From Candidatus Dojkabacteria bacterium (lineage in GTDB: Bacteria > Patescibacteriota > Dojkabacteria > B142 > JAFGFJ01), in the NCBI GenBank assembly GCA_016931155.1, contig JAFGFJ010000006.1, forward strand, positions 141,115 to 205,114: a DNA stretch of 64,000 bases. The letters run 5' to 3'. The translations under genes were made by a program, and so were the position numbers. Shown here piece by piece: positions 5,241 through 25,660 of this stretch. The first letter of the stretch is position 1. Every line of letters starts with the position of its first letter. Below the pieces are notes generated by a model. The model searched no databases, was not told the origin of the DNA, and saw only the letters and a list, made by a program, of their open reading frames with translations.

Positions 5241-5816
5241 ATGAGTAAGTCTCCGGATTTTGGCCCGACTTCTGAAATGAATGGGCGTATATCAGACGCA
5301 GATTTTATAAAATATGCAGTGAGTGTAGTAAAGGAGTGGGAAAAAGATAAAGATAATCTTACTGTTTTTCGCTTTCCTCCCATGGGCAGGCACCACATTG
5401 CCATGGTTATTACACCTACTCATCTTAATTTACAAAAACATGCAACAGAAGTTTTCCACGGTGACTACGAAGAGTATCTTTCTGCAGGAAGTCCTTCCGA
5501 TCATTTATTTCATCGGATAGTAGTTGTTCCGGATTATATACAAGAAGGTTCAATGGCGGATGGATTGACCGCCCTGAAGAATATCTCGACAGGGGAGGGT
5601 CTTCAAAAAGGCAATATAGGAGGTACGGCTATTGTAGCAAATAACAGGTTAATGGAAATAATAGCGCATGGTCTTGGCAGTATTAATGAATTGTTTTGTA
5701 GAAAACAATCGCAACGAACATACTATATCGAACTTGGAATACTTTCAGATGAGAGAATTCTGAGCACTTCATTGGAAGCTTATAAAAAGATAATGTTGCC
5801 ATACTCACAGGAATAA
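5241..5816 (+). CDS. hypothetical protein
   Basis: 191-aa ORF with no recognisable motif. It lies in the same-strand block with 3455 and 5911. Confidence 0.45.
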   Translation: MSKSPDFGPTSEMNGRISDADFIKYAVSVVKEWEKDKDNLTVFRFPPMGRHHIAMVITPTHLNLQKHATEVFHGDYEEYLSAGSPSDHLFHRIVVVPDYIQEGSMADGLTALKNISTGEGLQKGNIGGTAIVANNRLMEIIAHGLGSINELFCRKQSQRTYYIELGILSDERILSTSLEAYKKIMLPYSQE

Positions 5817-5910
5817 CCGGTAAAGATACAAGCATCAAAATTGGTCACAGTAGTTTGTTGTTTCAGGAAAAATGATTTAATTGTGACTTTTAGTTTTTAG
5901 CGAACGTATA

Positions 5911-7101
5911 ATGACTCAAGACAGGGTGGGGGGAGAAGTGTATGAGCAGCCAGGTCGTCGACAGACCGAAAACTTTGATCAGCTTGCTCAATTATTTGGA
6001 GTAAATGCGTCTGAATTGGGAAAGAAAACATTAAGAGTTATTGCGCCAAGGCTGGATGTAAAATCCTTACCAATATTGCCTACTCCAATTACTGGAATTT
6101 CTCTTGATGGAATGACTCTAGAGGAAAGAGCACTTGCTGATGAAATGTTCGCTAAATTTGAGAAAGGTCCATTTGATATACTTATGGATCCGACGGAATA
6201 CATACTTTCGACAGCAGCAAATCACGATAATGTAGTGGAAGAGCAGCGAGCCCGCGAGTTGATATTAAAACACAAAGTGGAAAGTCCAGGAGAGGGAGGC
6301 ATAGTGATTAGTTTTGCAGGTGGTTCATCTACATTTGATGCAGGACGTTCCTGGTTTTTTCCGCATGATTGTTATGTTTCACTGGATCGTAGTATGGCTT
6401 CATTGCAGGCTGGAAAAGAGAATGTTTTCCCTTTATTTTGGGGTGAAAGCGAAAGGCATGCAATTCAGTTTTCACTTGAGCAGCTTGTTGAATCTGGTAT
6501 AAAAGGACTGCCCGATGTGAGGGGGATTCCTGATGAGGACAGAACACAGAGAGAAAAGCTAGTGGAGAGGATAAGGGGTGAAGGAGTGCATCGTATATAC
6601 TTTGACCGTGCAGATATGTTTGTTCCTAACAGTATATATGACGGTCTAATCAGGGAGGCAGCTTCAATGCTTCGACCGGATGGGGCAATATTTATGATTA
6701 CACAAGCTTCAAATGATATTGAGCAATTCGGTTTTAAATTCAGGTCGCATGAGGGGATAGATAGAGAATATGCAATAGCAGTTGGGTTACCATTACCAGT
6801 CTTCAAAAATTTTGGTACAAAACAATTACTTGACCAAATAGTCTATCTGGATGGTAATCATACAGTGGATCACTATGAAATAGTCCCTGTAATTTCATAT
6901 CTCAGGTCTAGCGAAACAATTCGCAGGACAGCTCAAAAATATGGTCTTGAGGCAGAGATACATCCTGTTAGAGTCAACAAACAGTATATTTCTTCAGTAA
7001 CAAAGGATCGTAGCTTGTACGCAATGGGTCTCAAAGCAATGTCTATTTTATCAGGTAACCTGCCCTACTGGATTGTCGTAATGAAACCACAAAATCGATA
7101 A
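5911..7101 (+). CDS. hypothetical protein, weakly class-I methyltransferase-like
   Basis: 396 aa. GIVISFAGGSS ... IYFDRADMF ... LRPDGAIFMIT loosely resemble SAM MTase motifs I, II and III. Low-confidence family call. Confidence 0.45.
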   Translation: MTQDRVGGEVYEQPGRRQTENFDQLAQLFGVNASELGKKTLRVIAPRLDVKSLPILPTPITGISLDGMTLEERALADEMFAKFEKGPFDILMDPTEYILSTAANHDNVVEEQRARELILKHKVESPGEGGIVISFAGGSSTFDAGRSWFFPHDCYVSLDRSMASLQAGKENVFPLFWGESERHAIQFSLEQLVESGIKGLPDVRGIPDEDRTQREKLVERIRGEGVHRIYFDRADMFVPNSIYDGLIREAASMLRPDGAIFMITQASNDIEQFGFKFRSHEGIDREYAIAVGLPLPVFKNFGTKQLLDQIVYLDGNHTVDHYEIVPVISYLRSSETIRRTAQKYGLEAEIHPVRVNKQYISSVTKDRSLYAMGLKAMSILSGNLPYWIVVMKPQNR

Positions 7102-7238: not shown

Positions 7239-9698
7239 ATGTCCGACTATTCTTTTATCACAAAAGAGCTTATTGGTTCGCAGAAAAAATGTCTTCGTTT
7301 GGCTAACTACCTGTCAGCAACACAGCTTTATCTCAAAGAAAACTTCCTTCTTGAGGTCGAGCTTGAAAAAGCTCATATCAAAAAAAGAATTCTTGGTCAT
7401 TGGGGTACTGTCCCCGGCTTGAACTTTATCTACTCCAATCTAAATATTTTAATCAAGAGACATAATCAGGAAATGATGGTTGTAATAGGATCAGGGCATG
7501 GATCCCCCGCTATTCTTTCCAATATGTTTCTTGATGGTACGCTTGGAGAATTTTATCCTGAATACAAAGTCGGGAAGCAGGGAATAGGAAATTTAATTAG
7601 AAATTTCAGCTGGCCCGGAGGGTTTCCTTCTCATGCAAGTCCCAAAAGTCCTGGAATAATTTTGGAGGGTGGGGAACTTGGCTACTCTCTTGCAACAGCA
7701 TATGGAGCCGCTTTTGATAATAAGGAGCTTATTGTTGCCTGTATAATTGGGGACGGTGAGAGCGAGACAGGTACACTTTCTGCTTCATGGTACAGCAACA
7801 AATTTTTGAATCCTCAAAAAGACGGGGCAGTGCTTCCTGTTCTTCATATAAATAAACACAAAATTTCCGGCCCAACAATTTATGGGACGATGTCAGATAA
7901 AGAATTGATGAATTTATTCAAAGGTTACGGGTACGAACCGATTATCGTTCAGGAAGAAAACATTTATGAGGATTCACTGAAGGTCTTTGAATACGCATTC
8001 CAAAAAATTAAGCAAATCCAGAAAGAATTCCGGGGAGACAATCTTGATCAAGATGAAACTGCTGGGGGTGAGAGCTCAGAGAAAAACTTAAAAGAAAATA
8101 TTGAAGCTTTCAAACAAAAACCTGTGTGGCCTGTTATTCTTCTGAAAAGCAAAAAAGGATGGACAGGTCCGAAGGAATTGGACGGCACAATGGTAGAGGA
8201 TTCCTTTAGATCACACGGAATTCCTCTGGAAGATCCTGTAGAAGATGAAGAGCAGTTTAAACTTCTTGAAGAATGGCTTGGGAGTTATAAAGTTCACGAA
8301 TTGCTGACTGAAGATTTTAGACCAATTGAAGAAATAAAAGGGTTGCTCCCGGAAGGAGAGCTCAGGCCTGGCATGAATAAACATGCAAACAATCTTGTAT
8401 CCCAGCCGTTAAAGCTCCCGGAAATAGGAGATTATGAGCTGGAAATTTCCGGCAGTAAAAAAGCGAGCAGTATGACTGAACTTTCAAAATATCTCCGTGA
8501 TGTAATTAAAAATAACCCAAATATTTTTAGAATAATGTCTCCTGATGAGAGCGAATCGAACAAGCTTCAGTCGCTTTTTGACGTTACTGGCAGAACCTAT
8601 GTCTGGCCTGTCCCGGGTGCATCGGAGAATATTTCCCGGGATGGTAGAATGATGGAGCTTCTCAGCGAAAATGTTCTTCAAGCCTGGCTTCAGGGATATA
8701 TACTTACCGGGAGACATGGCGTCTATATCTCATACGAAGCCTTCATGATGATAATTGCGAGTATGGTAGATCAATACTCAAAGTTTTTGAAACAGGCAAA
8801 AAGTGTGGGATGGAGAAAACCCCTTCCTTCAATGAACTTTATTATTACGAGTACAGGCTGGAGACAAGATCACAACGGCTATTCCCATCAAAATCCCGGG
8901 TTTATCAGTAGTGTACTCAACGACTATTCAGAAAGTATTGATGTTCATTTTCCACCTGATGCCAATTCTCTACTTCTGACTTGTGAAGAAGCTCTAAAAA
9001 GTCGAGATAAGATAAACATAATAATTACTGGCAAAAGAGAACTACCCCAATACATAACAATGGAAAATTTTAAAGAACAAATGAGAAGTGGAATTTCTAT
9101 ATGGGAAGGCGTTGGAAATGTGAAGAGCGTGGGAACAGAAGAAATACTGGAAAATCAAAAAGAAGATGATATACCTGACATAGTTTTTGCGGCAACGGGA
9201 GACTACTCAACACTAGAGTCGATCTCGGCAATAAAAATCCTGAAAAGACTTGTTCCCGAAATGAGAACAAGATTTGTAAGCATAAGTGAGCTTTCGTGTT
9301 TTGGAATTGGTGACAGAAGAGGTTTGAATTTTAATGGTGATAATTTGAAAAGAATTTTAACTGATTCAAAACCCGTGATTTATTCTTATCACGGTTATCC
9401 TCAGGATATAAAAAGCCTGATTTTTGGTCACTCCTTTGCTGGCAGGATTTCGATTCACGGATATAGTGAGAAGGGAACCACAACAACTCCTTTTGATATG
9501 CAGGTACAGAATGATTGCGACAGGTTTCATTTGGCTCTTGAAGCTGTAATGAAGGTTTCAGAAACAAATGAGAAAGTAAGAGAAAAAAGAAAGCAAGTTG
9601 AATACTATATAAATTCTTTACTTGAGAAGCATGCGAAAGTAATAATTGAAACAGGAGAAGACATAGAAGAAATCAGAAATTTTGAAAAATATTTTTAA
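7239..9698 (+). CDS. xfp: xylulose-5-phosphate/fructose-6-phosphate phosphoketolase
   Basis: 819 aa. Carries the phosphoketolase signature GHWGTVPG, the TPP-binding region GDGESETG, and a typical length. Confidence 0.9.
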   Translation: MSDYSFITKELIGSQKKCLRLANYLSATQLYLKENFLLEVELEKAHIKKRILGHWGTVPGLNFIYSNLNILIKRHNQEMMVVIGSGHGSPAILSNMFLDGTLGEFYPEYKVGKQGIGNLIRNFSWPGGFPSHASPKSPGIILEGGELGYSLATAYGAAFDNKELIVACIIGDGESETGTLSASWYSNKFLNPQKDGAVLPVLHINKHKISGPTIYGTMSDKELMNLFKGYGYEPIIVQEENIYEDSLKVFEYAFQKIKQIQKEFRGDNLDQDETAGGESSEKNLKENIEAFKQKPVWPVILLKSKKGWTGPKELDGTMVEDSFRSHGIPLEDPVEDEEQFKLLEEWLGSYKVHELLTEDFRPIEEIKGLLPEGELRPGMNKHANNLVSQPLKLPEIGDYELEISGSKKASSMTELSKYLRDVIKNNPNIFRIMSPDESESNKLQSLFDVTGRTYVWPVPGASENISRDGRMMELLSENVLQAWLQGYILTGRHGVYISYEAFMMIIASMVDQYSKFLKQAKSVGWRKPLPSMNFIITSTGWRQDHNGYSHQNPGFISSVLNDYSESIDVHFPPDANSLLLTCEEALKSRDKINIIITGKRELPQYITMENFKEQMRSGISIWEGVGNVKSVGTEEILENQKEDDIPDIVFAATGDYSTLESISAIKILKRLVPEMRTRFVSISELSCFGIGDRRGLNFNGDNLKRILTDSKPVIYSYHGYPQDIKSLIFGHSFAGRISIHGYSEKGTTTTPFDMQVQNDCDRFHLALEAVMKVSETNEKVREKRKQVEYYINSLLEKHAKVIIETGEDIEEIRNFEKYF

Positions 9699-19332: not shown

Positions 19333-20580
19333 ATGCTAAAGATTATCTATTTGCATTTGCATAAAACCAATACCCTTTTTCTGAACATCTTATTAGTGTT
19401 TGGGGTAATTTTTTGTTTTACACCAAAGGTGAATGCAGAAGTTTCCGTTGTTTCAAGGGCTGAGAGTAAAATTGATGAAAACCTGACAAAGGAAGATGCA
19501 AACTTTGCCTCTCCGAAAAGTATTCTGCTCGTTCCTTTATTCAGACCGGAAGGAGTAAATGAAAATGATAGTAAGTGGTTTAGATCTCTGTACTATTTTT
19601 ACACTGCGAGGCTTGGTTTTCCTGATATCCCATTTCACTTTGTGGTTGGAGGAAATGGTGATATTTATGAGGGGAATAAGGGTGGAGAGGAGCAAAGTAT
19701 TCTTATTAATGGAGAGGAGCCTGGCTCAATCGTTATCGCTTATCTCGTAAAAGAAGGTGAAAATGGATTTTCTATTAGAGCATATGATTCCATCCGGGAA
19801 ATTTTGCTTGACGTTGCAAATAGAAACGCTATTAAACCAGAAAAGATTAAAATTACTGGAGCAGAAGTTGTTGTTAACCTCAAAAACAAAACAGTTTTTA
19901 TTAGATCGAAAGCTCTTGTTGGGGGAGGATGGAGTAATGGAATGAAAGAGGCTCTTGATTTTGTCGATAAAAACTATAAACCTGTTCCAAAGCTATATTC
20001 CATCAAAATTGTCGAGGCAAAACCTCCTGATGCACCGGTAAATTACCGTGAAACAGGACTTATGACTTTAAAAATAAAAAATACGGGAAAGAATAGTATT
20101 TATCAAGGTGGAGATAGCGAAATAATTGGTCTAAAAAAAGACGGAGAGGATAGTAGATTTTTTGTAAATGGTGTCTGGGCAAGTCCTTCTCAACCGACAA
20201 TAATGAGTGAGGGCAACGTTATCCGCCCTGGTGAAGAAAAAACGTTTATATTTAAGTTGCATGTTCCATTGTATTTTGGAGAGCAACGAGAGTCGTTCAG
20301 CCTGGTAAATAGAAATGGACAAAATTTTGATGGAACGGATTTTGATATTGTTTTGAATGTAAATACCCCAACTGAAAAAGTTGTTGAAATACTTTCCACT
20401 GATACTGGATATCTCAATGTGCGTGAAATAGCCAGTGGAGCAGCAAATGTTATTACAAAGGTTAATCCCGGGCAAAGGTATTTCTTCTTGGAGGATAGCA
20501 ATACCGGGTGGTACAAAATAGATATAGAGGGAGGAAAGAGCGGTTGGGTAGCAAAACAGCATGTTAAGTTTGTGAATTAA
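19333..20580 (+). CDS. secreted protein with C-terminal SH3b domain, N-terminal region weakly Amidase_2-like
   Basis: Signal peptide (LNILLVFGVIFCFTPKVNA). The C-terminal GYLNVREIASGAANVITKVNPGQRYFFLEDSNTGWYKIDIEGGKSGWV is a bacterial SH3 pattern. HFVVGGNGDIYEGN resembles an Amidase_2 motif but the His ligands are not evident. Confidence 0.5.
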   Translation: MLKIIYLHLHKTNTLFLNILLVFGVIFCFTPKVNAEVSVVSRAESKIDENLTKEDANFASPKSILLVPLFRPEGVNENDSKWFRSLYYFYTARLGFPDIPFHFVVGGNGDIYEGNKGGEEQSILINGEEPGSIVIAYLVKEGENGFSIRAYDSIREILLDVANRNAIKPEKIKITGAEVVVNLKNKTVFIRSKALVGGGWSNGMKEALDFVDKNYKPVPKLYSIKIVEAKPPDAPVNYRETGLMTLKIKNTGKNSIYQGGDSEIIGLKKDGEDSRFFVNGVWASPSQPTIMSEGNVIRPGEEKTFIFKLHVPLYFGEQRESFSLVNRNGQNFDGTDFDIVLNVNTPTEKVVEILSTDTGYLNVREIASGAANVITKVNPGQRYFFLEDSNTGWYKIDIEGGKSGWVAKQHVKFVN

Positions 20581-20676
20581 TTACAGTTTGAAGTGTGAGG
20601 GTAAGGAGTGCAATATTTTTAATATTTTTTTAATAACTTTGATTTAGAATTTTATATTATTTTTTATTTAGTCCCT

Positions 20677-21708
20677 ATGGTAAAAACTGACGAAAAGAAG
20701 AATACAAAAGAAAGTAGCATTTCTGAAGGTAAAAAAAAGGCGATTGATATAGCAGTGAGTCAAATTGAGAAGCAGTTTGGACAGGGGTCGATTATGAAGA
20801 TGGGAGCCGGGGTGCAAAAAGACATTGACGTCATTCCGACAGGAGCGCTTTCCCTGGATATTGCTTTAGGAGTAGGGGGAGTACCAAAAGGCAGGATTAT
20901 TGAGATTTATGGTCCGGAGTCTTCGGGCAAAACAACGTTGGCACATCATATTGTCGCTGAGGTACAGGCAAAAGGAGGTGTTGCTGCTTTTATAGACGCT
21001 GAACATGCTCTTGATCCGGCTTATGCGAAAAATATCGGAGTTGATCTTGAAAATCTCTATATATCGCAGCCTGATTATGGAGAACAGGCGTTAGAAATAC
21101 TTGAGACCTTAGTGAGGTCAGGAGCGGTGGATGTAGTTGTTGTTGATTCTGTCGCCGCACTTACTCCAAGGGCTGAAATTGAAGGTGATATGGGAGATTC
21201 ACATATGGGACTCCAGGCACGTCTTATGAGCCAGGCACTCAGGAAAATCACAGCAATTACAAGTAAGACAGGTTCAACCGTTGTTTTTCTTAATCAGATA
21301 AGAATGAAAATAGGAATAATGTTTGGAAATCCTGAAACAACAACTGGGGGTAATGCATTGAAGTTCTATTCTTCTGTAAGAATGGAAATAAGAAGAAAAG
21401 AAAAGCTAACGGAGGGAGATGAAGTAATTGGCAATACAGTTAATGTGAAAGTTGTTAAGAACAAAGTTGCTCCTCCTTTTCGGGAAGCAAGCTTTGACAT
21501 AATTTTTTCGAAAGGAATAGATAAATACAGTAGTCTTCTAGATGCTGCCGTGCAATTTGAGATTATTGAAAGATCGGGGGCATGGTTTAAGTATGGAGAA
21601 AAACAGCTTGCACAGGGAAAAGATGCCACAAAAGAAGCACTTAGAGCAGATAAGAAGTTAGCAAAGGAGATTTTTGATAAGGTCAGGGAGGCAGCAGGGA
21701 TAAAGTAA
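20677..21708 (+). CDS. recA: recombinase RecA
   Basis: 343 aa. Walker [12 protein letters not shown], the [13 protein letters not shown]-terminus and the L2 loop are unmistakable. Confidence 0.95.
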
Positions 21709-21788
21709 AAGGACAAATAGTTGAAAAACTTTGTACTTTCTGGTACAAATTAGCACTGCCGTTCTTTCTACTTTATCAGTCTTTAGCC

Positions 21789-22385
21789 ATGTTTAATGAA
21801 AAGGATATTGTTAAGCACTTGCTGGTCTCGAAAGTAAGGATAAAGGCTCTAAAATATTTTCTATTTCACCCTGATGTTCCTATTCATTTAAGAGGAGCTG
21901 TGAGGGAACTGGGTGAGGAGATCAATGCAGTTAGAAGAGAACTGACAAGGCTCGAAAAAATAAAATTTCTCGATACTGAAAGGCGGGGCAACAGAAAGTA
22001 TTTTTTTACGAACAAGAAGTTCAGTTTTTTTTCCGAATTTTTATCAATTTTTCACAAAACCTATGGGCTTGGTGGTGAAATAATCAGAAATACGGGAAAG
22101 CTTGGTGATGTGCAATTTGCTCTCCTTACAAGTTCGTTCACAAAGGGAATGAGGGTGGGGTCACATGATATTGATCTCGTTCTTGTCGGTCAGGTGAATG
22201 TTGATGCTCTGTCTTCGATCGTTGAGAGGATGGAAAAGCAATTAAGAAAAGAAATAAATTATACTGTTCTAAAAAATAGTGAGTTTCAGTTAAGGAAGAA
22301 AAGAAGAGATGCCTTTATTGTGGATTTGATTGTTGGAAGTAAGATAATGCTTATTGGAGATGATGAGGAATTTATTGCAGCATAG
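21789..22385 (+). CDS. winged-helix (ArsR-like) plus minimal nucleotidyltransferase domain protein
   Basis: 198 aa. The N-terminal wHTH-like region (KALKYFLFHPDVPIHLRGAVRELGEEINAVRRELTRLE) is followed by the NTase motif GSHDIDLVLVG. Confidence 0.55.
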   Translation: MFNEKDIVKHLLVSKVRIKALKYFLFHPDVPIHLRGAVRELGEEINAVRRELTRLEKIKFLDTERRGNRKYFFTNKKFSFFSEFLSIFHKTYGLGGEIIRNTGKLGDVQFALLTSSFTKGMRVGSHDIDLVLVGQVNVDALSSIVERMEKQLRKEINYTVLKNSEFQLRKKRRDAFIVDLIVGSKIMLIGDDEEFIAA

Positions 22386-22387
22386 AT

Positions 22388-22750
22388 ATGGAAACAGGTT
22401 TTGATCCCAATACTAAACAAGCAAGGGTTTGTACTCAGAGAAGATTTTACAGTGATGGGAAAAATATTCATGGAGAATCAGGGTGTGGAAGATGTGGAGC
22501 TTGTTGTGTGGCTCTAGGTGTCCCCTCAATAGGGAAAAAAGCAGGAGACAAATGTGTGCATATGACTATTGAAGAAGGTCTTGCCAGTTGTGCTCTTCAT
22601 GAAGCGGACAAACCTCCTGAATGTAAAGAGTGGGGTTGTTATGGGGAAGGCCTGCCAAACGCCCTCCAGAGAGATGATTTCCTGGATATTGCTATTAAGA
22701 TTGGAACAAGGACGGAGGAGGATATTCAAGGATTGATTTCTTCTTTTTAA
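22388..22750 (+). CDS. YkgJ/UPF0153-like cysteine-cluster protein
   Basis: 120 aa. CGRCGACC is a CxxCxxCC motif, with further Cys residues (CVH, CAL, CKEWGC). The start lies 2 nt after the upstream stop. Confidence 0.5.
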   Translation: METGFDPNTKQARVCTQRRFYSDGKNIHGESGCGRCGACCVALGVPSIGKKAGDKCVHMTIEEGLASCALHEADKPPECKEWGCYGEGLPNALQRDDFLDIAIKIGTRTEEDIQGLISSF

Positions 22751-22868
22751 GAGTATTTACTTGACTGGATTTTGTAGTTTAGTTCTTCTTTCTCCAGGCT
22801 GGGAATTATGTTTATTCTATAGATATCCCTCTTGCTCCACAATTCCTATATAATATTTTCTATATTGA

Positions 22869-23696
22869 TTGATAATGAAGAATCAGTTATTTCCTCTTCA
22901 CCAAAAAGGAAAAAGGTTTAAGGTGTGGATAGAGCAGGCGAAGTTTGATCTTCAGGCCGCGAGGATTAGTTATGAGAATGGTTTTTATGAGTGGACAACT
23001 TTCCAGTCAGTTCAGGCGGTAGAAAAAGCACTGAAGTCGGTGATTGTTTATTCCGGATGGAGACCACCCAAACTCCACAGACTCTCTGTACTTATTGGTT
23101 TGGCAAACCAGGTTAACCCGGAATTTGAAAGGATAAAATTTTTATTTAATGATCTGGAATCGTTTACCTTTATTTCCCGATATCCGTTTGCTCTTCCGGG
23201 GAACTATGCTACTCCTCACGATAGTATTTCAAAAGGCGATGCCGACAAAGCCTACAACCAGGCTGTTGATATAGTTGGGAAGATAGGATCACTTCTTGAG
23301 GTGAGTGTAGTTCCTGAACATTCATTTGAAATTGTTGAGCAATCTCTAACTCTGGAAGAGATTGATGAAAGGATCAGACAGATTGTTGGAGTGATCAAAA
23401 GGGAATTTGATCCTGATAAGATTGTTTTGTTTGGCTCATTTGCTGAAAAGAATAAGAAGAATTCAAGACCATTCAATACTATGGATATTATGGTGATTGC
23501 GAAAACGGACTTGCCTTTTTTTGAGAGAATAAAAAAGGTTAGAGAAGTGACAAAGGGAGGAATACCGACCATTGAGCCTCTGGTTTATACACCTGAGGAA
23601 TTTCAATCATTGAAAGATGAAGAAGGAGAAGGTCTTTTGGAAGAAGCTATTGAGAAGGGAAGGGTTCTATACGAAAGACACAACAATGAATTCTAA
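22869..23696 (+). CDS. HEPN domain (N-terminal) fused to minimal nucleotidyltransferase (C-terminal)
   Basis: 275 aa. HEPN pattern: AKFDLQAA...QAVEKALKSVI...RPPKLHRL (Rx4H)...ISRYP. Then IVLFGSFAEKN...TMDIMVIAKTD, an NTP_transf_2 GS...D motif with the second Asp replaced by Met. Confidence 0.7.
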   Translation: MIMKNQLFPLHQKGKRFKVWIEQAKFDLQAARISYENGFYEWTTFQSVQAVEKALKSVIVYSGWRPPKLHRLSVLIGLANQVNPEFERIKFLFNDLESFTFISRYPFALPGNYATPHDSISKGDADKAYNQAVDIVGKIGSLLEVSVVPEHSFEIVEQSLTLEEIDERIRQIVGVIKREFDPDKIVLFGSFAEKNKKNSRPFNTMDIMVIAKTDLPFFERIKKVREVTKGGIPTIEPLVYTPEEFQSLKDEEGEGLLEEAIEKGRVLYERHNNEF

Positions 23697-24051
23697 TCCT
23701 AGAGCCAAAAAGATATTGTGCTAAGGAGATTCCAATACTTGGGGCTATATCCTTGGGACGACCAAACGTTATGACGTTAAAACAAGATGGACAGGAATAT
23801 TAATTATTTGTCCTACTATTGCTGATGAGAGAGTAGAAGGTATAAAAGAAAAATACCGAGGAGCAGAAGAAAAATCCAGGAAACTAGGTCATCTGTACAA
23901 AGAAATAGCTGATAAACATGGTCTTCCTTTTATCGATCTGGGTAGGCATGTTCTCCCAAGTAAAAAAGATGGTTATCATTTTGACAAAGATACGCATAAG
24001 AAAGTAGCAGAAATATTATTTGGAGTCATTCGGGATTTTTACTCTAAATAA
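23686..24051 (+). pseudogene. SGNH/GDSL hydrolase pseudogene with in-frame TAA and apparent internal truncation
   Basis: ATG at 23686 gives MNSNPRAKKILC, then TAA at 23722, then the same frame continues GDSNTWGYILG...DGYHFDKDTHKKVAEILF to TAA at 24049-24051. ILC[F/Y]GDSNTWG and DGxH are SGNH blocks I and V. The total of ~120 aa is too short for the fold. Confidence 0.6.
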
Positions 24052-24116
24052 AGGCATTGTCCTGAAGCGAAACTTCAAGTTGAAAACTTGGTTAAGCGAA
24101 AGGACAATGCCTTTTA
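24051..24116. terminator. bidirectional terminator hairpin between convergent SGNH pseudogene and rny
   Basis: A 13-bp perfect inverted repeat, AAGGCATTGTCCT (24051-24063) and AGGACAATGCCTT (24101-24113). The 37-nt loop has its own inner stem CAAGTT gaaa AACTTG. TTTT follows on the plus strand. Confidence 0.5.
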
Positions 24117-24118
24117 TC

Positions 24119-25660
24119 TTATTTGGCTTCCTCCTCTATCCTGAATTCTCTTATTGCTGTGATTTTTACAATTCCAGGATAATTTTGAGTTTCTTCAATT
24201 TCTTTTGCTATTTTATGTGCCAGAATCTTTGCTTCTTCGTCATCTGCTACTTTTGGATCAATTAAAACTCTAACTTCACGACCGGCATGTATTGCATATG
24301 CTTCCTTAACTTCTTTGTATTGTTTTGCAATATCTTCCAGTGCCTTAATTCTCTTTATGTAATCTTCGTAATTATCAACTCTTGCACCCGGTCTTGCCCC
24401 TGAGATTGCATCAGCTATTGCAACCAGATGTGCTTCGGTACTTTTTGCCTCGATGTCCCCATGGTGAGCCTCTGCTGCGTTTGCCAGTTTCTCATCTTTA
24501 AAATATTTTCTAATAATGTTACCTGAAATATGGTGATGGGGTTTTCCTTCAATTTCGTGAGTTAAAACTTTTCCTATGTCGTGGAGTAAACAGGCTTTTT
24601 TTGTAAGTTGAACGTCGGCTCCGATCTCTGCAGCAAGTTGTGCTCCTATGTTGACCATTTCAATAGTATGTTTTATAAGGTTTTGCCCGTAGCTGAACCT
24701 GTACTTGAATCTTCCAAGAAGCTTTACAACTTCGAGAGGAAGATCGTTGAATCCGGTTTCATAGGCGATGTATTCTCCGGTTTTTCTAATTTCTTTGACG
24801 ACTTCTTCCTTTGCCTTTTTAATACTTTCCTCGATGGTTCCCGGGTGAATCCTTCCATCTTTTAAGAGTCCTTTTAAAGCTATCGCTGCAACCTCTCTTC
24901 TGATAGGGTCGAATGAGGAAACAGATATTTGGCCAGGAGCTTCATCAACGATAATATCTACCCCTGTCAGCCTTTCAAATGTTCTAATATTCCTTCCTTC
25001 TTTCCCGATAATTTTTCCTTTCTGATCCTCGTTTACTTCAACAGATGTGGTAGTTGTTTCTGCCACATAGTCCGTGGCACTTTTCTGCATTGAATCCACC
25101 AAAATTTCCTTTGCCCTTTCTTCAGCTTCGCTTTCTATTTTATATTCAGCTTCTTTAATTTTCTTTGCAATGTACTCTTTCATATCTTCTTCCAGCTTTT
25201 TTTCCAGCTGTTCTTTTGCTTTTGCCTTGGTAAGCCCTGCTATCTGCTGGAGTTCAGTTTCCGTTTTGTCTCTTAATTTCTTAACATCAATTTTTGCCTG
25301 TTCAATTGCCTTTTCTTTTCTTCCAATTTCGTCAAATCTGTGGTCTATTGAATTTGCTCTTTCTATTATCTTTTTCTCCCTTATGTCCAGTCTTTTTTCA
25401 TTTTCCTCTAAATCCCTGTAAAGACTTTTCACTTTTTCATCTGTTTTTGACTTTACGTCAAGGGCTTCTCTCTGTGCTTCAAGAATAATCTCTTTAGCTC
25501 TTACACTTGCTTTTTCGAGAGCCTCATCTTCAGGAATAATTTTGTTCTCTCTATCTTTAAGTTTTCCAGCAAGATCCTTTCTTAGAAGAAACCCAACGAC
25601 TGAACCTCCAATTCCTACAGTAGAAATGATCGACAAGACAACGATAATTAACGTCTCCAT
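24119..25660 (-). CDS. rny: ribonuclease Y
   Basis: 513 aa. N-terminal TM, coiled coil, KH domain (GKIIGKEGRNIRTFERLTGV) and HD domain (LLHDIGKVLTHEIEG...HH). Confidence 0.9.
   Translation of the reverse strand: METLIIVVLSIISTVGIGGSVVGFLLRKDLAGKLKDRENKIIPEDEALEKASVRAKEIILEAQREALDVKSKTDEKVKSLYRDLEENEKRLDIREKKIIERANSIDHRFDEIGRKEKAIEQAKIDVKKLRDKTETELQQIAGLTKAKAKEQLEKKLEEDMKEYIAKKIKEAEYKIESEAEERAKEILVDSMQKSATDYVAETTTTSVEVNEDQKGKIIGKEGRNIRTFERLTGVDIIVDEAPGQISVSSFDPIRREVAAIALKGLLKDGRIHPGTIEESIKKAKEEVVKEIRKTGEYIAYETGFNDLPLEVVKLLGRFKYRFSYGQNLIKHTIEMVNIGAQLAAEIGADVQLTKKACLLHDIGKVLTHEIEGKPHHHISGNIIRKYFKDEKLANAAEAHHGDIEAKSTEAHLVAIADAISGARPGARVDNYEDYIKRIKALEDIAKQYKEVKEAYAIHAGREVRVLIDPKVADDEEAKILAHKIAKEIEETQNYPGIVKITAIREFRIEEEAK

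Follow-up and report, generated by a model that had tools for sequence, protein, structure and literature searches.

The locus lies in a 64 000-nt stretch of forward-strand DNA from a Candidatus Dojkabacteria bacterium (the window; position 1 is its first letter), where the putative remnant of an SGNH esterase gene stands between a gene for a HEPN domain fused to a nucleotidyltransferase (HEPN-NTase) and a convergent rny gene. Two further assemblies were used for comparison: L001, a 1563-bp contig from Logan run SRR22541068 and the sole close relative, and L011, a 24.5-kb contig from Logan run SRR13394437, a contig of the same strain that was reached via P0095, a match in the HEPN-NTase homologue search. 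Exact-sequence look-ups of the RNase Y and HEPN-NTase proteins of the window had found no record. The features are given below with strand and, in brackets, the evidence or remarks for each.

22869–23696, plus strand: upstream HEPN + nucleotidyltransferase fusion gene, 275 aa (Pfam HEPN, Polbeta NTase)
23686–23721, plus strand: start codon and first 12 codons of the SGNH esterase gene, MNSNPRAKKILC (translation; N-terminus close to that of the intact homologue P0005, MNSNPKALRILCYGDS)
23722–23724, plus strand: in-frame TAA, standing for the Tyr/Phe before the GDS motif (TAC in the orthologue L001; the same in L011)
23725–23796, plus strand: block I remnant, GDSNTWGY...RWTG (nucleophile Ser codon TCC at 23731–23733; a Pro-to-Leu change included)
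23796–23799, plus strand: junction of an in-frame 291-nt (97-codon) deletion with 2 nt (AT) of microhomology (DNA and protein alignment)
23797–24048, plus strand: C-terminal remnant, 84 codons, with block V DGYH at 23968–23979 (translation, alignment)
24049–24051, plus strand: original esterase stop codon, TAA (translation; L001 alignment)
24050–24114, no strand assigned: long hairpin between the esterase remnant and rny (inverted repeat; folding)
24119–25660, minus strand: rny (RNase Y, 513 aa), convergent and downstream (used for taxonomic placement and for finding orthologous loci)

The HEPN-NTase gene codes for both domains in one polypeptide (Pfam HEPN, E 1.3e-23, N-terminal; Polbeta NTase, E 1.7e-6, C-terminal), and its last 11 nt overlap the start of the esterase gene (ATG at 23686). 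Translation of 23686–24051 (plus strand) gave MNSNPRAKKILC, a stop, GDSNTWGYILGTTKRYDVKTRWTGILIICPTIADERVEGIKEKYRGAEEKSRKLGHLYKEIADKHGLPFIDLGRHVLPSKKDGYHFDKDTHKKVAEILFGVIRDFYSK and a second stop, with DGYHF and a final YSK-TAA, and the frame is thus as an earlier note on this DNA had described it (MNSNPRAKKILC, TAA, GDSNTWGY...DGYHF). No ATG, GTG or TTG was found in the esterase frame 3′ of the first TAA, which is why the open-frame listing shows just a 35-aa stretch terminating at 23722–23724; only 23686–23721 (12 codons) of the esterase gene is still translatable from a start codon. GDSNTWG, the part of block I with the nucleophile Ser, is encoded at 23725–23745 but lies 3′ of the in-frame TAA and has no later start. 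Block V DGYH is kept at 23968–23979 and aligns with the DG[Y/I]H of the homologues (catalytic Asp and His motif DxxH).

A search of 5.8 billion proteins with the remnant returned 94 matches, 93 of which are 204–212 aa long. The best intact homologues (P0002–P0005) are 46–54% identical to the remnant, with P0002 at 54%. The lone short match (P0001, 120 aa, 78% identity) is a C-terminal fragment of the interrupted gene of L001 itself. A mini-SGNH family of about 120 aa, which the earlier note had allowed for as an alternative, was therefore rejected, given the lengths of 93 of the 94 matches and the origin of the only 120-aa match in a broken gene. P0002 matches the aryl esterase of PDB entry 2q0q (E 2.3e-43), and also 5hoe, 8zbc, 7bxb, 4tx1 and 3dci. 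With the MsAcT-like SGNH/GDSL arylesterases/acyltransferases the window copy shares the N-terminal ILC[F/Y]GDSNTWGY of block I and the C-terminal DG[Y/I]H of block V; it differs from them in a stop at codon 13, in the absence of 97 codons (blocks II and III) and in Pfam scores below gathering. Judged by these alignments, the window has a defunct copy of an MsAcT-like SGNH/GDSL arylesterase, which when intact is a single-domain enzyme of about 212 aa.

The four closest intact homologues are found in four unrelated genomic contexts, one of them directly after a serine recombinase gene. In that case (L003, 6401–8639, a 710-kb contig, GCA_964576435.1) the intact P0004 gene is directly 3′ of a 500-aa serine recombinase gene accompanied by small unannotated ORFs. 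The varied contexts fit an accessory, laterally moving gene, and the context of P0004 fits a family travelling on mobile DNA.

At the position of the premature stop, the alignment column of eight intact homologues holds F in seven and Y in one, and the L001 codon is TAC (Tyr), so that a single C-to-A change explains the TAA of the window. The earlier note had proposed just this, a one-base change at the conserved F/Y before GDS, and the comparison of orthologous loci that it called for bears it out: L001 has the sense codon TAC and also retains the 291 nt missing from the window. The change from TAC to TAA also makes AAGGAG at 23723–23728, a canonical Shine–Dalgarno match, which gives no obvious re-initiation because no in-frame ATG, GTG or TTG lies beyond it.

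The earlier note had also considered a sequencing error, and a sequencing or assembly error at this site would mean that the true genome has TAC or TAT at 23722–23724 and that the gene is not interrupted there. The comparison is one of consensus sequences, and L011 possibly derives from the window's own reads. L011, a separately produced public assembly, nevertheless matches window 19923–25016 with 100% identity (5094 of 5094 nt), TAA and deletion included, and the TAA site is not within a homopolymer. The identity of L011 excludes a fault of the assembler, while an error in the reads could be common to both assemblies, since they may share reads; the error explanation is weakened to this extent. 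Even with a sense codon at 23722–23724, 97 codons including blocks II and III would be missing and the gene would still be dead, so that an error at the stop would rescue nothing. We regard an error of this kind as highly improbable.

The DNA alignment with L001 shows an exact in-frame 291-nt (97-codon) deletion at 23796|23797, the missing DNA being L001 780–1070, with the 2 nt AT at the junction assignable to either side. In the protein alignment, columns 38–134 are absent from the window, and with them block II (EEGLN.RTT) and block III (GTNDLK); the oxyanion-hole residues, the Gly of block II and the Asn of the block III GxND, are both deleted from the window copy. The earlier note had described a remnant of about 120 aa without block III, and this stands, with the correction that block II is gone too. 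On an AlphaFold model of intact P0002 (pLDDT 95.2), the deleted part comprises strands 47–53 and 87–91, helices 71–81, 105–120 and 122–125, and most of helix 35–46, so that the deletion takes away about 44% of the protein, including two of its five core β-strands. A 121-aa product with the stop repaired to Phe scored 27.3 bits against Pfam Lipase_GDSL_2 (PF13472; gathering 32.9) and 22.9 bits against Lipase_GDSL (PF00657; gathering 23.6), below gathering in both cases. Its best Lipase_GDSL_2 stretch covers profile positions 97–174 of 178, and the middle of the domain is therefore missing. The profile alignment that the earlier note had advised for sizing the deletion is thus in place, along with the count of 97 codons lost relative to L001. 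Searches of the window for the missing 291 nt and for a second esterase copy found neither, and a translocation of the 291 nt within the window was dropped, since the sequence is absent elsewhere in it.

The gene order in L001 is that of the window, with HEPN-NTase, esterase and convergent rny. The L001 esterase gene (669–1325) keeps the full middle region and has its own in-frame TAA at 873–875 (DDSKNPN-stop-GKNG), with two extra codons compared with the DDPKHEGKNG of intact homologues. This TAA sits inside the segment that is deleted from the window. The lesions of the two copies are at different sites and therefore arose independently. When amino-acid differences were polarised with four intact outgroups, 11 were derived on the window branch and 3 on the L001 branch, with 5 ambiguous, an asymmetry that is marginally significant on a rough estimate (about p = 0.06, two-sided). 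Among the changes on the window branch is a Pro-to-Leu replacement in the block I remnant, at a Pro that is invariant in eight of eight outgroups. The 11 : 3 asymmetry, small as the numbers are, would fit a longer or deeper decay in the lineage of the window.

The gene might instead be alive, with the TAA read through or recoded and the product of about 120 aa acting as a functional miniature SGNH protein. In line with this, the window and L001 copies each have an in-frame TAA followed by GG, and the ω of the pair is about 0.22; the two stops, however, fall at sites that do not correspond, and each copy lacks the stop of the other. Of the three stop codons, TAA is the one most used in the window (29 of 52 long open frames, against 14 for TAG and 9 for TGA), and it also ends the esterase and HEPN-NTase genes. 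A search for tRNA genes across the window found none, and hence no suppressor tRNA gene within its 64 000 nt, though one may lie elsewhere in the genome. RNA folding after each of the two stops, compared with shuffled sequence, gave z-scores of −1.7 and 0.05, nothing beyond chance. No other stop-split genes were found in the window: in the two best candidate pairs of same-frame neighbours, each member is a gene in its own right and starts with an ATG. The product would moreover have lost both residues of the oxyanion hole (Gly and Asn) and two strands of the core, and there are no homologues of about 120 aa among the 94 matches. Reassignment or read-through of TAA was rejected on stop usage, the lack of tRNA genes and of other interrupted genes in the window, and the lack of downstream structure; the read-through alternative of the earlier note is left without support from stop usage, tRNA scan or folding, and a live gene is exceedingly improbable.

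RNase Y assigns the window to Candidatus Dojkabacteria (candidate division WS6), where the nearest species representatives are only 56–64% identical to it. At E ≤ 1e-20 the HEPN-NTase search gave 186 homologues; among the matches listed, those with a name are Dojkabacteria/WS6, and the 120 listed are about 250–300 aa long. In L009 nothing separates HEPN-NTase (5569–6363) from the end of rny, which is 33 nt away, and in the relatives with a HEPN-NTase of 64% and 62% identity the two genes are 125 nt and 91 nt apart, respectively. As HEPN-NTase adjoins rny without an esterase in these more distant Dojkabacteria, the esterase gene was inserted only in the clade of the window and L001. In L008 recA, an ORF198-like gene and the HEPN-NTase gene (7239–8069) are found together, and HEPN-NTase behaves in these neighbourhoods as a conserved, long-standing syntenic resident (recA ... 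HEPN-NTase, convergent rny) and not as a mobile toxin–antitoxin-like module. The earlier note had thought of the esterase as possibly a relic hitch-hiking next to the HEPN module; the loci in L008, L009 and the 62–64% relatives reverse these roles, with HEPN-NTase as the resident and the esterase as the newcomer. No repeats resembling target-site duplications and no terminal repeats were found around the insert.

Divergence between the window and L001 was determined separately for the parts of the locus, with the following values for DNA identity, identity at third codon positions, pS and pN.

HEPN-NTase (218 codons): DNA identity 79%, third-position 51%, pS 0.74, pN 0.059
rny C-terminus (55 codons): DNA identity 79%, third-position 45%, pS 0.82, pN 0.043
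Esterase remnant: DNA identity 88–90%, third-position 81%, pS 0.28, pN 0.07
Intergenic hairpin region: DNA identity 91%

In the flanking genes nearly all divergence is at third codon positions, with synonymous sites near saturation, and synonymous differences are significantly rarer in the remnant than in the flanks (Fisher p about 8e-13). The divergence shifts at the edges of the insert, on the left at about 23676 and on the right within about 12 nt of the rny stop, so that the low-divergence tract is window 23676–24130 against L001 660–1400. A shift in GC or codon bias was rejected as the source of the contrast, since substitution directions are balanced in flanks and remnant. Within the remnant, 21 synonymous and 20 nonsynonymous differences were counted (ω about 0.22), and the 21 of 41 compare with 8.7 expected (binomial p = 2e-5); identity at codon positions 1, 2 and 3 is 90%, 94% and 81%. 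The pair still looks protein-constrained, and inactivation was therefore recent on that time scale. We infer that the last common ancestor of the two esterase copies is much younger than that of their flanks, and that both copies were protein-constrained for most of the time since then and disabled only lately. The contrast suggests recent lateral exchange of the esterase and hairpin segment between lineages; it is also possible that the flanking core genes were replaced by alleles of a more distant lineage, through recombination that stopped at the limits of homology.

In the hairpin at 24050–24114, a perfect outer stem of 14 bp encloses two similar loop motifs (CUGAAGCGAAAC and UUAAGCGAAAG; repeated, AAGCGAAA) and a 6-bp inner stem, with an MFE of −31.1 kcal/mol (z −6.2). 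The inner stem CAAGUU/AACUUG of the window is CAAGUC/GACUUG in L001, a compensatory pair. Located between convergent genes and flanked by T-runs on both sides, the hairpin is most simply read as a bidirectional terminator, which it probably is. No Rfam family was found at its gathering threshold across the window. The best Rfam match of both copies is RF01742, the lactis-plasmid RNA, at 40.2 bits in the window (24042–24126) and 34.6 bits in L001 (1316–1420), against a gathering score of 70. The description of RF01742 (Weinberg et al. 2010, PMC2864571) is from Lactobacillales and does not decide whether the RNA is cis-regulatory. Window 24042–24126 aligns with this family end to end, and shares with it the long hairpin and the internal-loop motifs CUGAA.CGA and AG.GAAAG; on the other hand the score is far below gathering, and the hairpin lies in a Dojkabacteria chromosome whereas the family is listed for Lactobacillales. 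The likeness may serve as a weak lead only. A hairpin of the RF01742 type had no match at E ≤ 0.05 in 37 kb of related loci, the pattern CTGAAGCGAAACN{10,30}TTAAGCGAAAG, which represents the two loop motifs, had none in JGI metagenome contigs or IMG/VR, and downstream of the intact homologue in L002 a comparable hairpin was not apparent by eye. An integron attC site, considered by inspection only, was dropped: the GTTRRRY-like GTTAAGC is inside the loop and not at the outer ends, and the loop motifs are direct and not inverted repeats.

The better conservation of the remnant's DNA compared with the flanks could hint at some retained role. A remnant kept for a non-coding role, as 3′ UTR or terminator of the HEPN-NTase transcript or as a structured RNA with the hairpin, would account for the higher conservation of its DNA relative to the silent sites of its neighbours (88–91% identity to L001 over remnant and hairpin, 79% in the flanks), and the stability of the hairpin (z −6.2), its compensatory change and the weak RF01742 likeness are in keeping with this. 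The third codon positions of the remnant, however, vary most (81%, against 90% and 94% at positions 1 and 2), which is the signature of coding sequence and not of RNA; the window tolerates the loss of 291 nt that L001 keeps; and no Rfam match in the window scores as high as gathering. Retention for such a role is accordingly thought very unlikely. Esterase and 3′ hairpin might also form a discrete cassette that moved between Dojkabacteria lineages well after their split and landed precisely between HEPN-NTase and rny. The coincidence of the low-divergence tract with the insert at both ends is compatible with this, as are the four contexts of the homologues, one of them by a serine recombinase gene; we consider such a cassette unlikely. 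If it existed, the conserved hairpin could belong to the mobile unit rather than being a plain terminator.

Nonsense mutation and deletion give rise to unitary pseudogenes in bacteria, a course of decay well known from reduced genomes. On sequence comparison, 23686–24051 is very probably a unitary pseudogene of an MsAcT-like SGNH/GDSL arylesterase, and as such an ordinary pseudogene of a well-known enzyme family. Homology to the intact 204–212-aa family is clear, and the disabling lesions are missing from its intact members. The decaying pseudogene proposed in the earlier note is thus upheld by two independent lesions (nonsense at residue 13 and the 97-codon deletion), by TAC in L001 and by the lack of a later start. 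The locus resembles other unitary bacterial pseudogenes in its nonsense change, its microhomology-flanked deletion, its changes at conserved sites and a sister copy that is independently disrupted; unlike unitary pseudogenes of old core genes, it stems from a recent lineage-specific acquisition, and its DNA differs less from the relative than do the flanking core genes.

The gene stands between HEPN-NTase and the convergent rny in one Dojkabacteria (WS6) lineage only, in operon-like contact with HEPN-NTase, its ATG overlapping the stop region of that gene. The window copy bears the TAC-to-TAA nonsense change at codon 13 and the 291-nt in-frame deletion. Ribosomes coming from the HEPN-NTase gene would make at most a 12-residue peptide, and the sequence beyond is probably a passive passenger, the untranslated 3′ end of the HEPN-NTase transcript up to the hairpin at 24050–24114. 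Because the L001 copy was disrupted by separate lesions, the enzyme appears to have ceased to be under selection in the clade soon after the arrival of the gene. The pseudogene is a neat small case of an accessory enzyme gene that was gained by a CPR bacterium with a tiny genome and soon lost again, in each of two sister lineages independently. For annotation, 23686–24051 should be marked as a pseudogene and not as one or two small ORFs or as a candidate recoding site. The feature with the wider reach is the mismatch in age between insert and flanks, which, from two sequences only, hints at recent gene flow between Dojkabacteria lineages.

Two further differences were seen nearby. A 2-nt indel before the esterase ATG (window 23676–23696, L001 660–672) makes the HEPN-NTase C-terminus ERHNNEF in the window and ERQQ in L001, and the overlap with the esterase start 11 nt in the window and 4 nt (ATGA) in L001. 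Between the ORF198 and HEPN-NTase genes, the window has a 120-aa Cys-rich ORF (22388–22750, plus strand; CGRCGACC..., CKEWGC) with no Pfam or NCBIfam match. There is no room for it in the relatives checked, ORF198 and HEPN-NTase abutting in L008 and being separated by a gap of about 92 nt on the P0096 contig, and this ORF may be another lineage-specific insertion.
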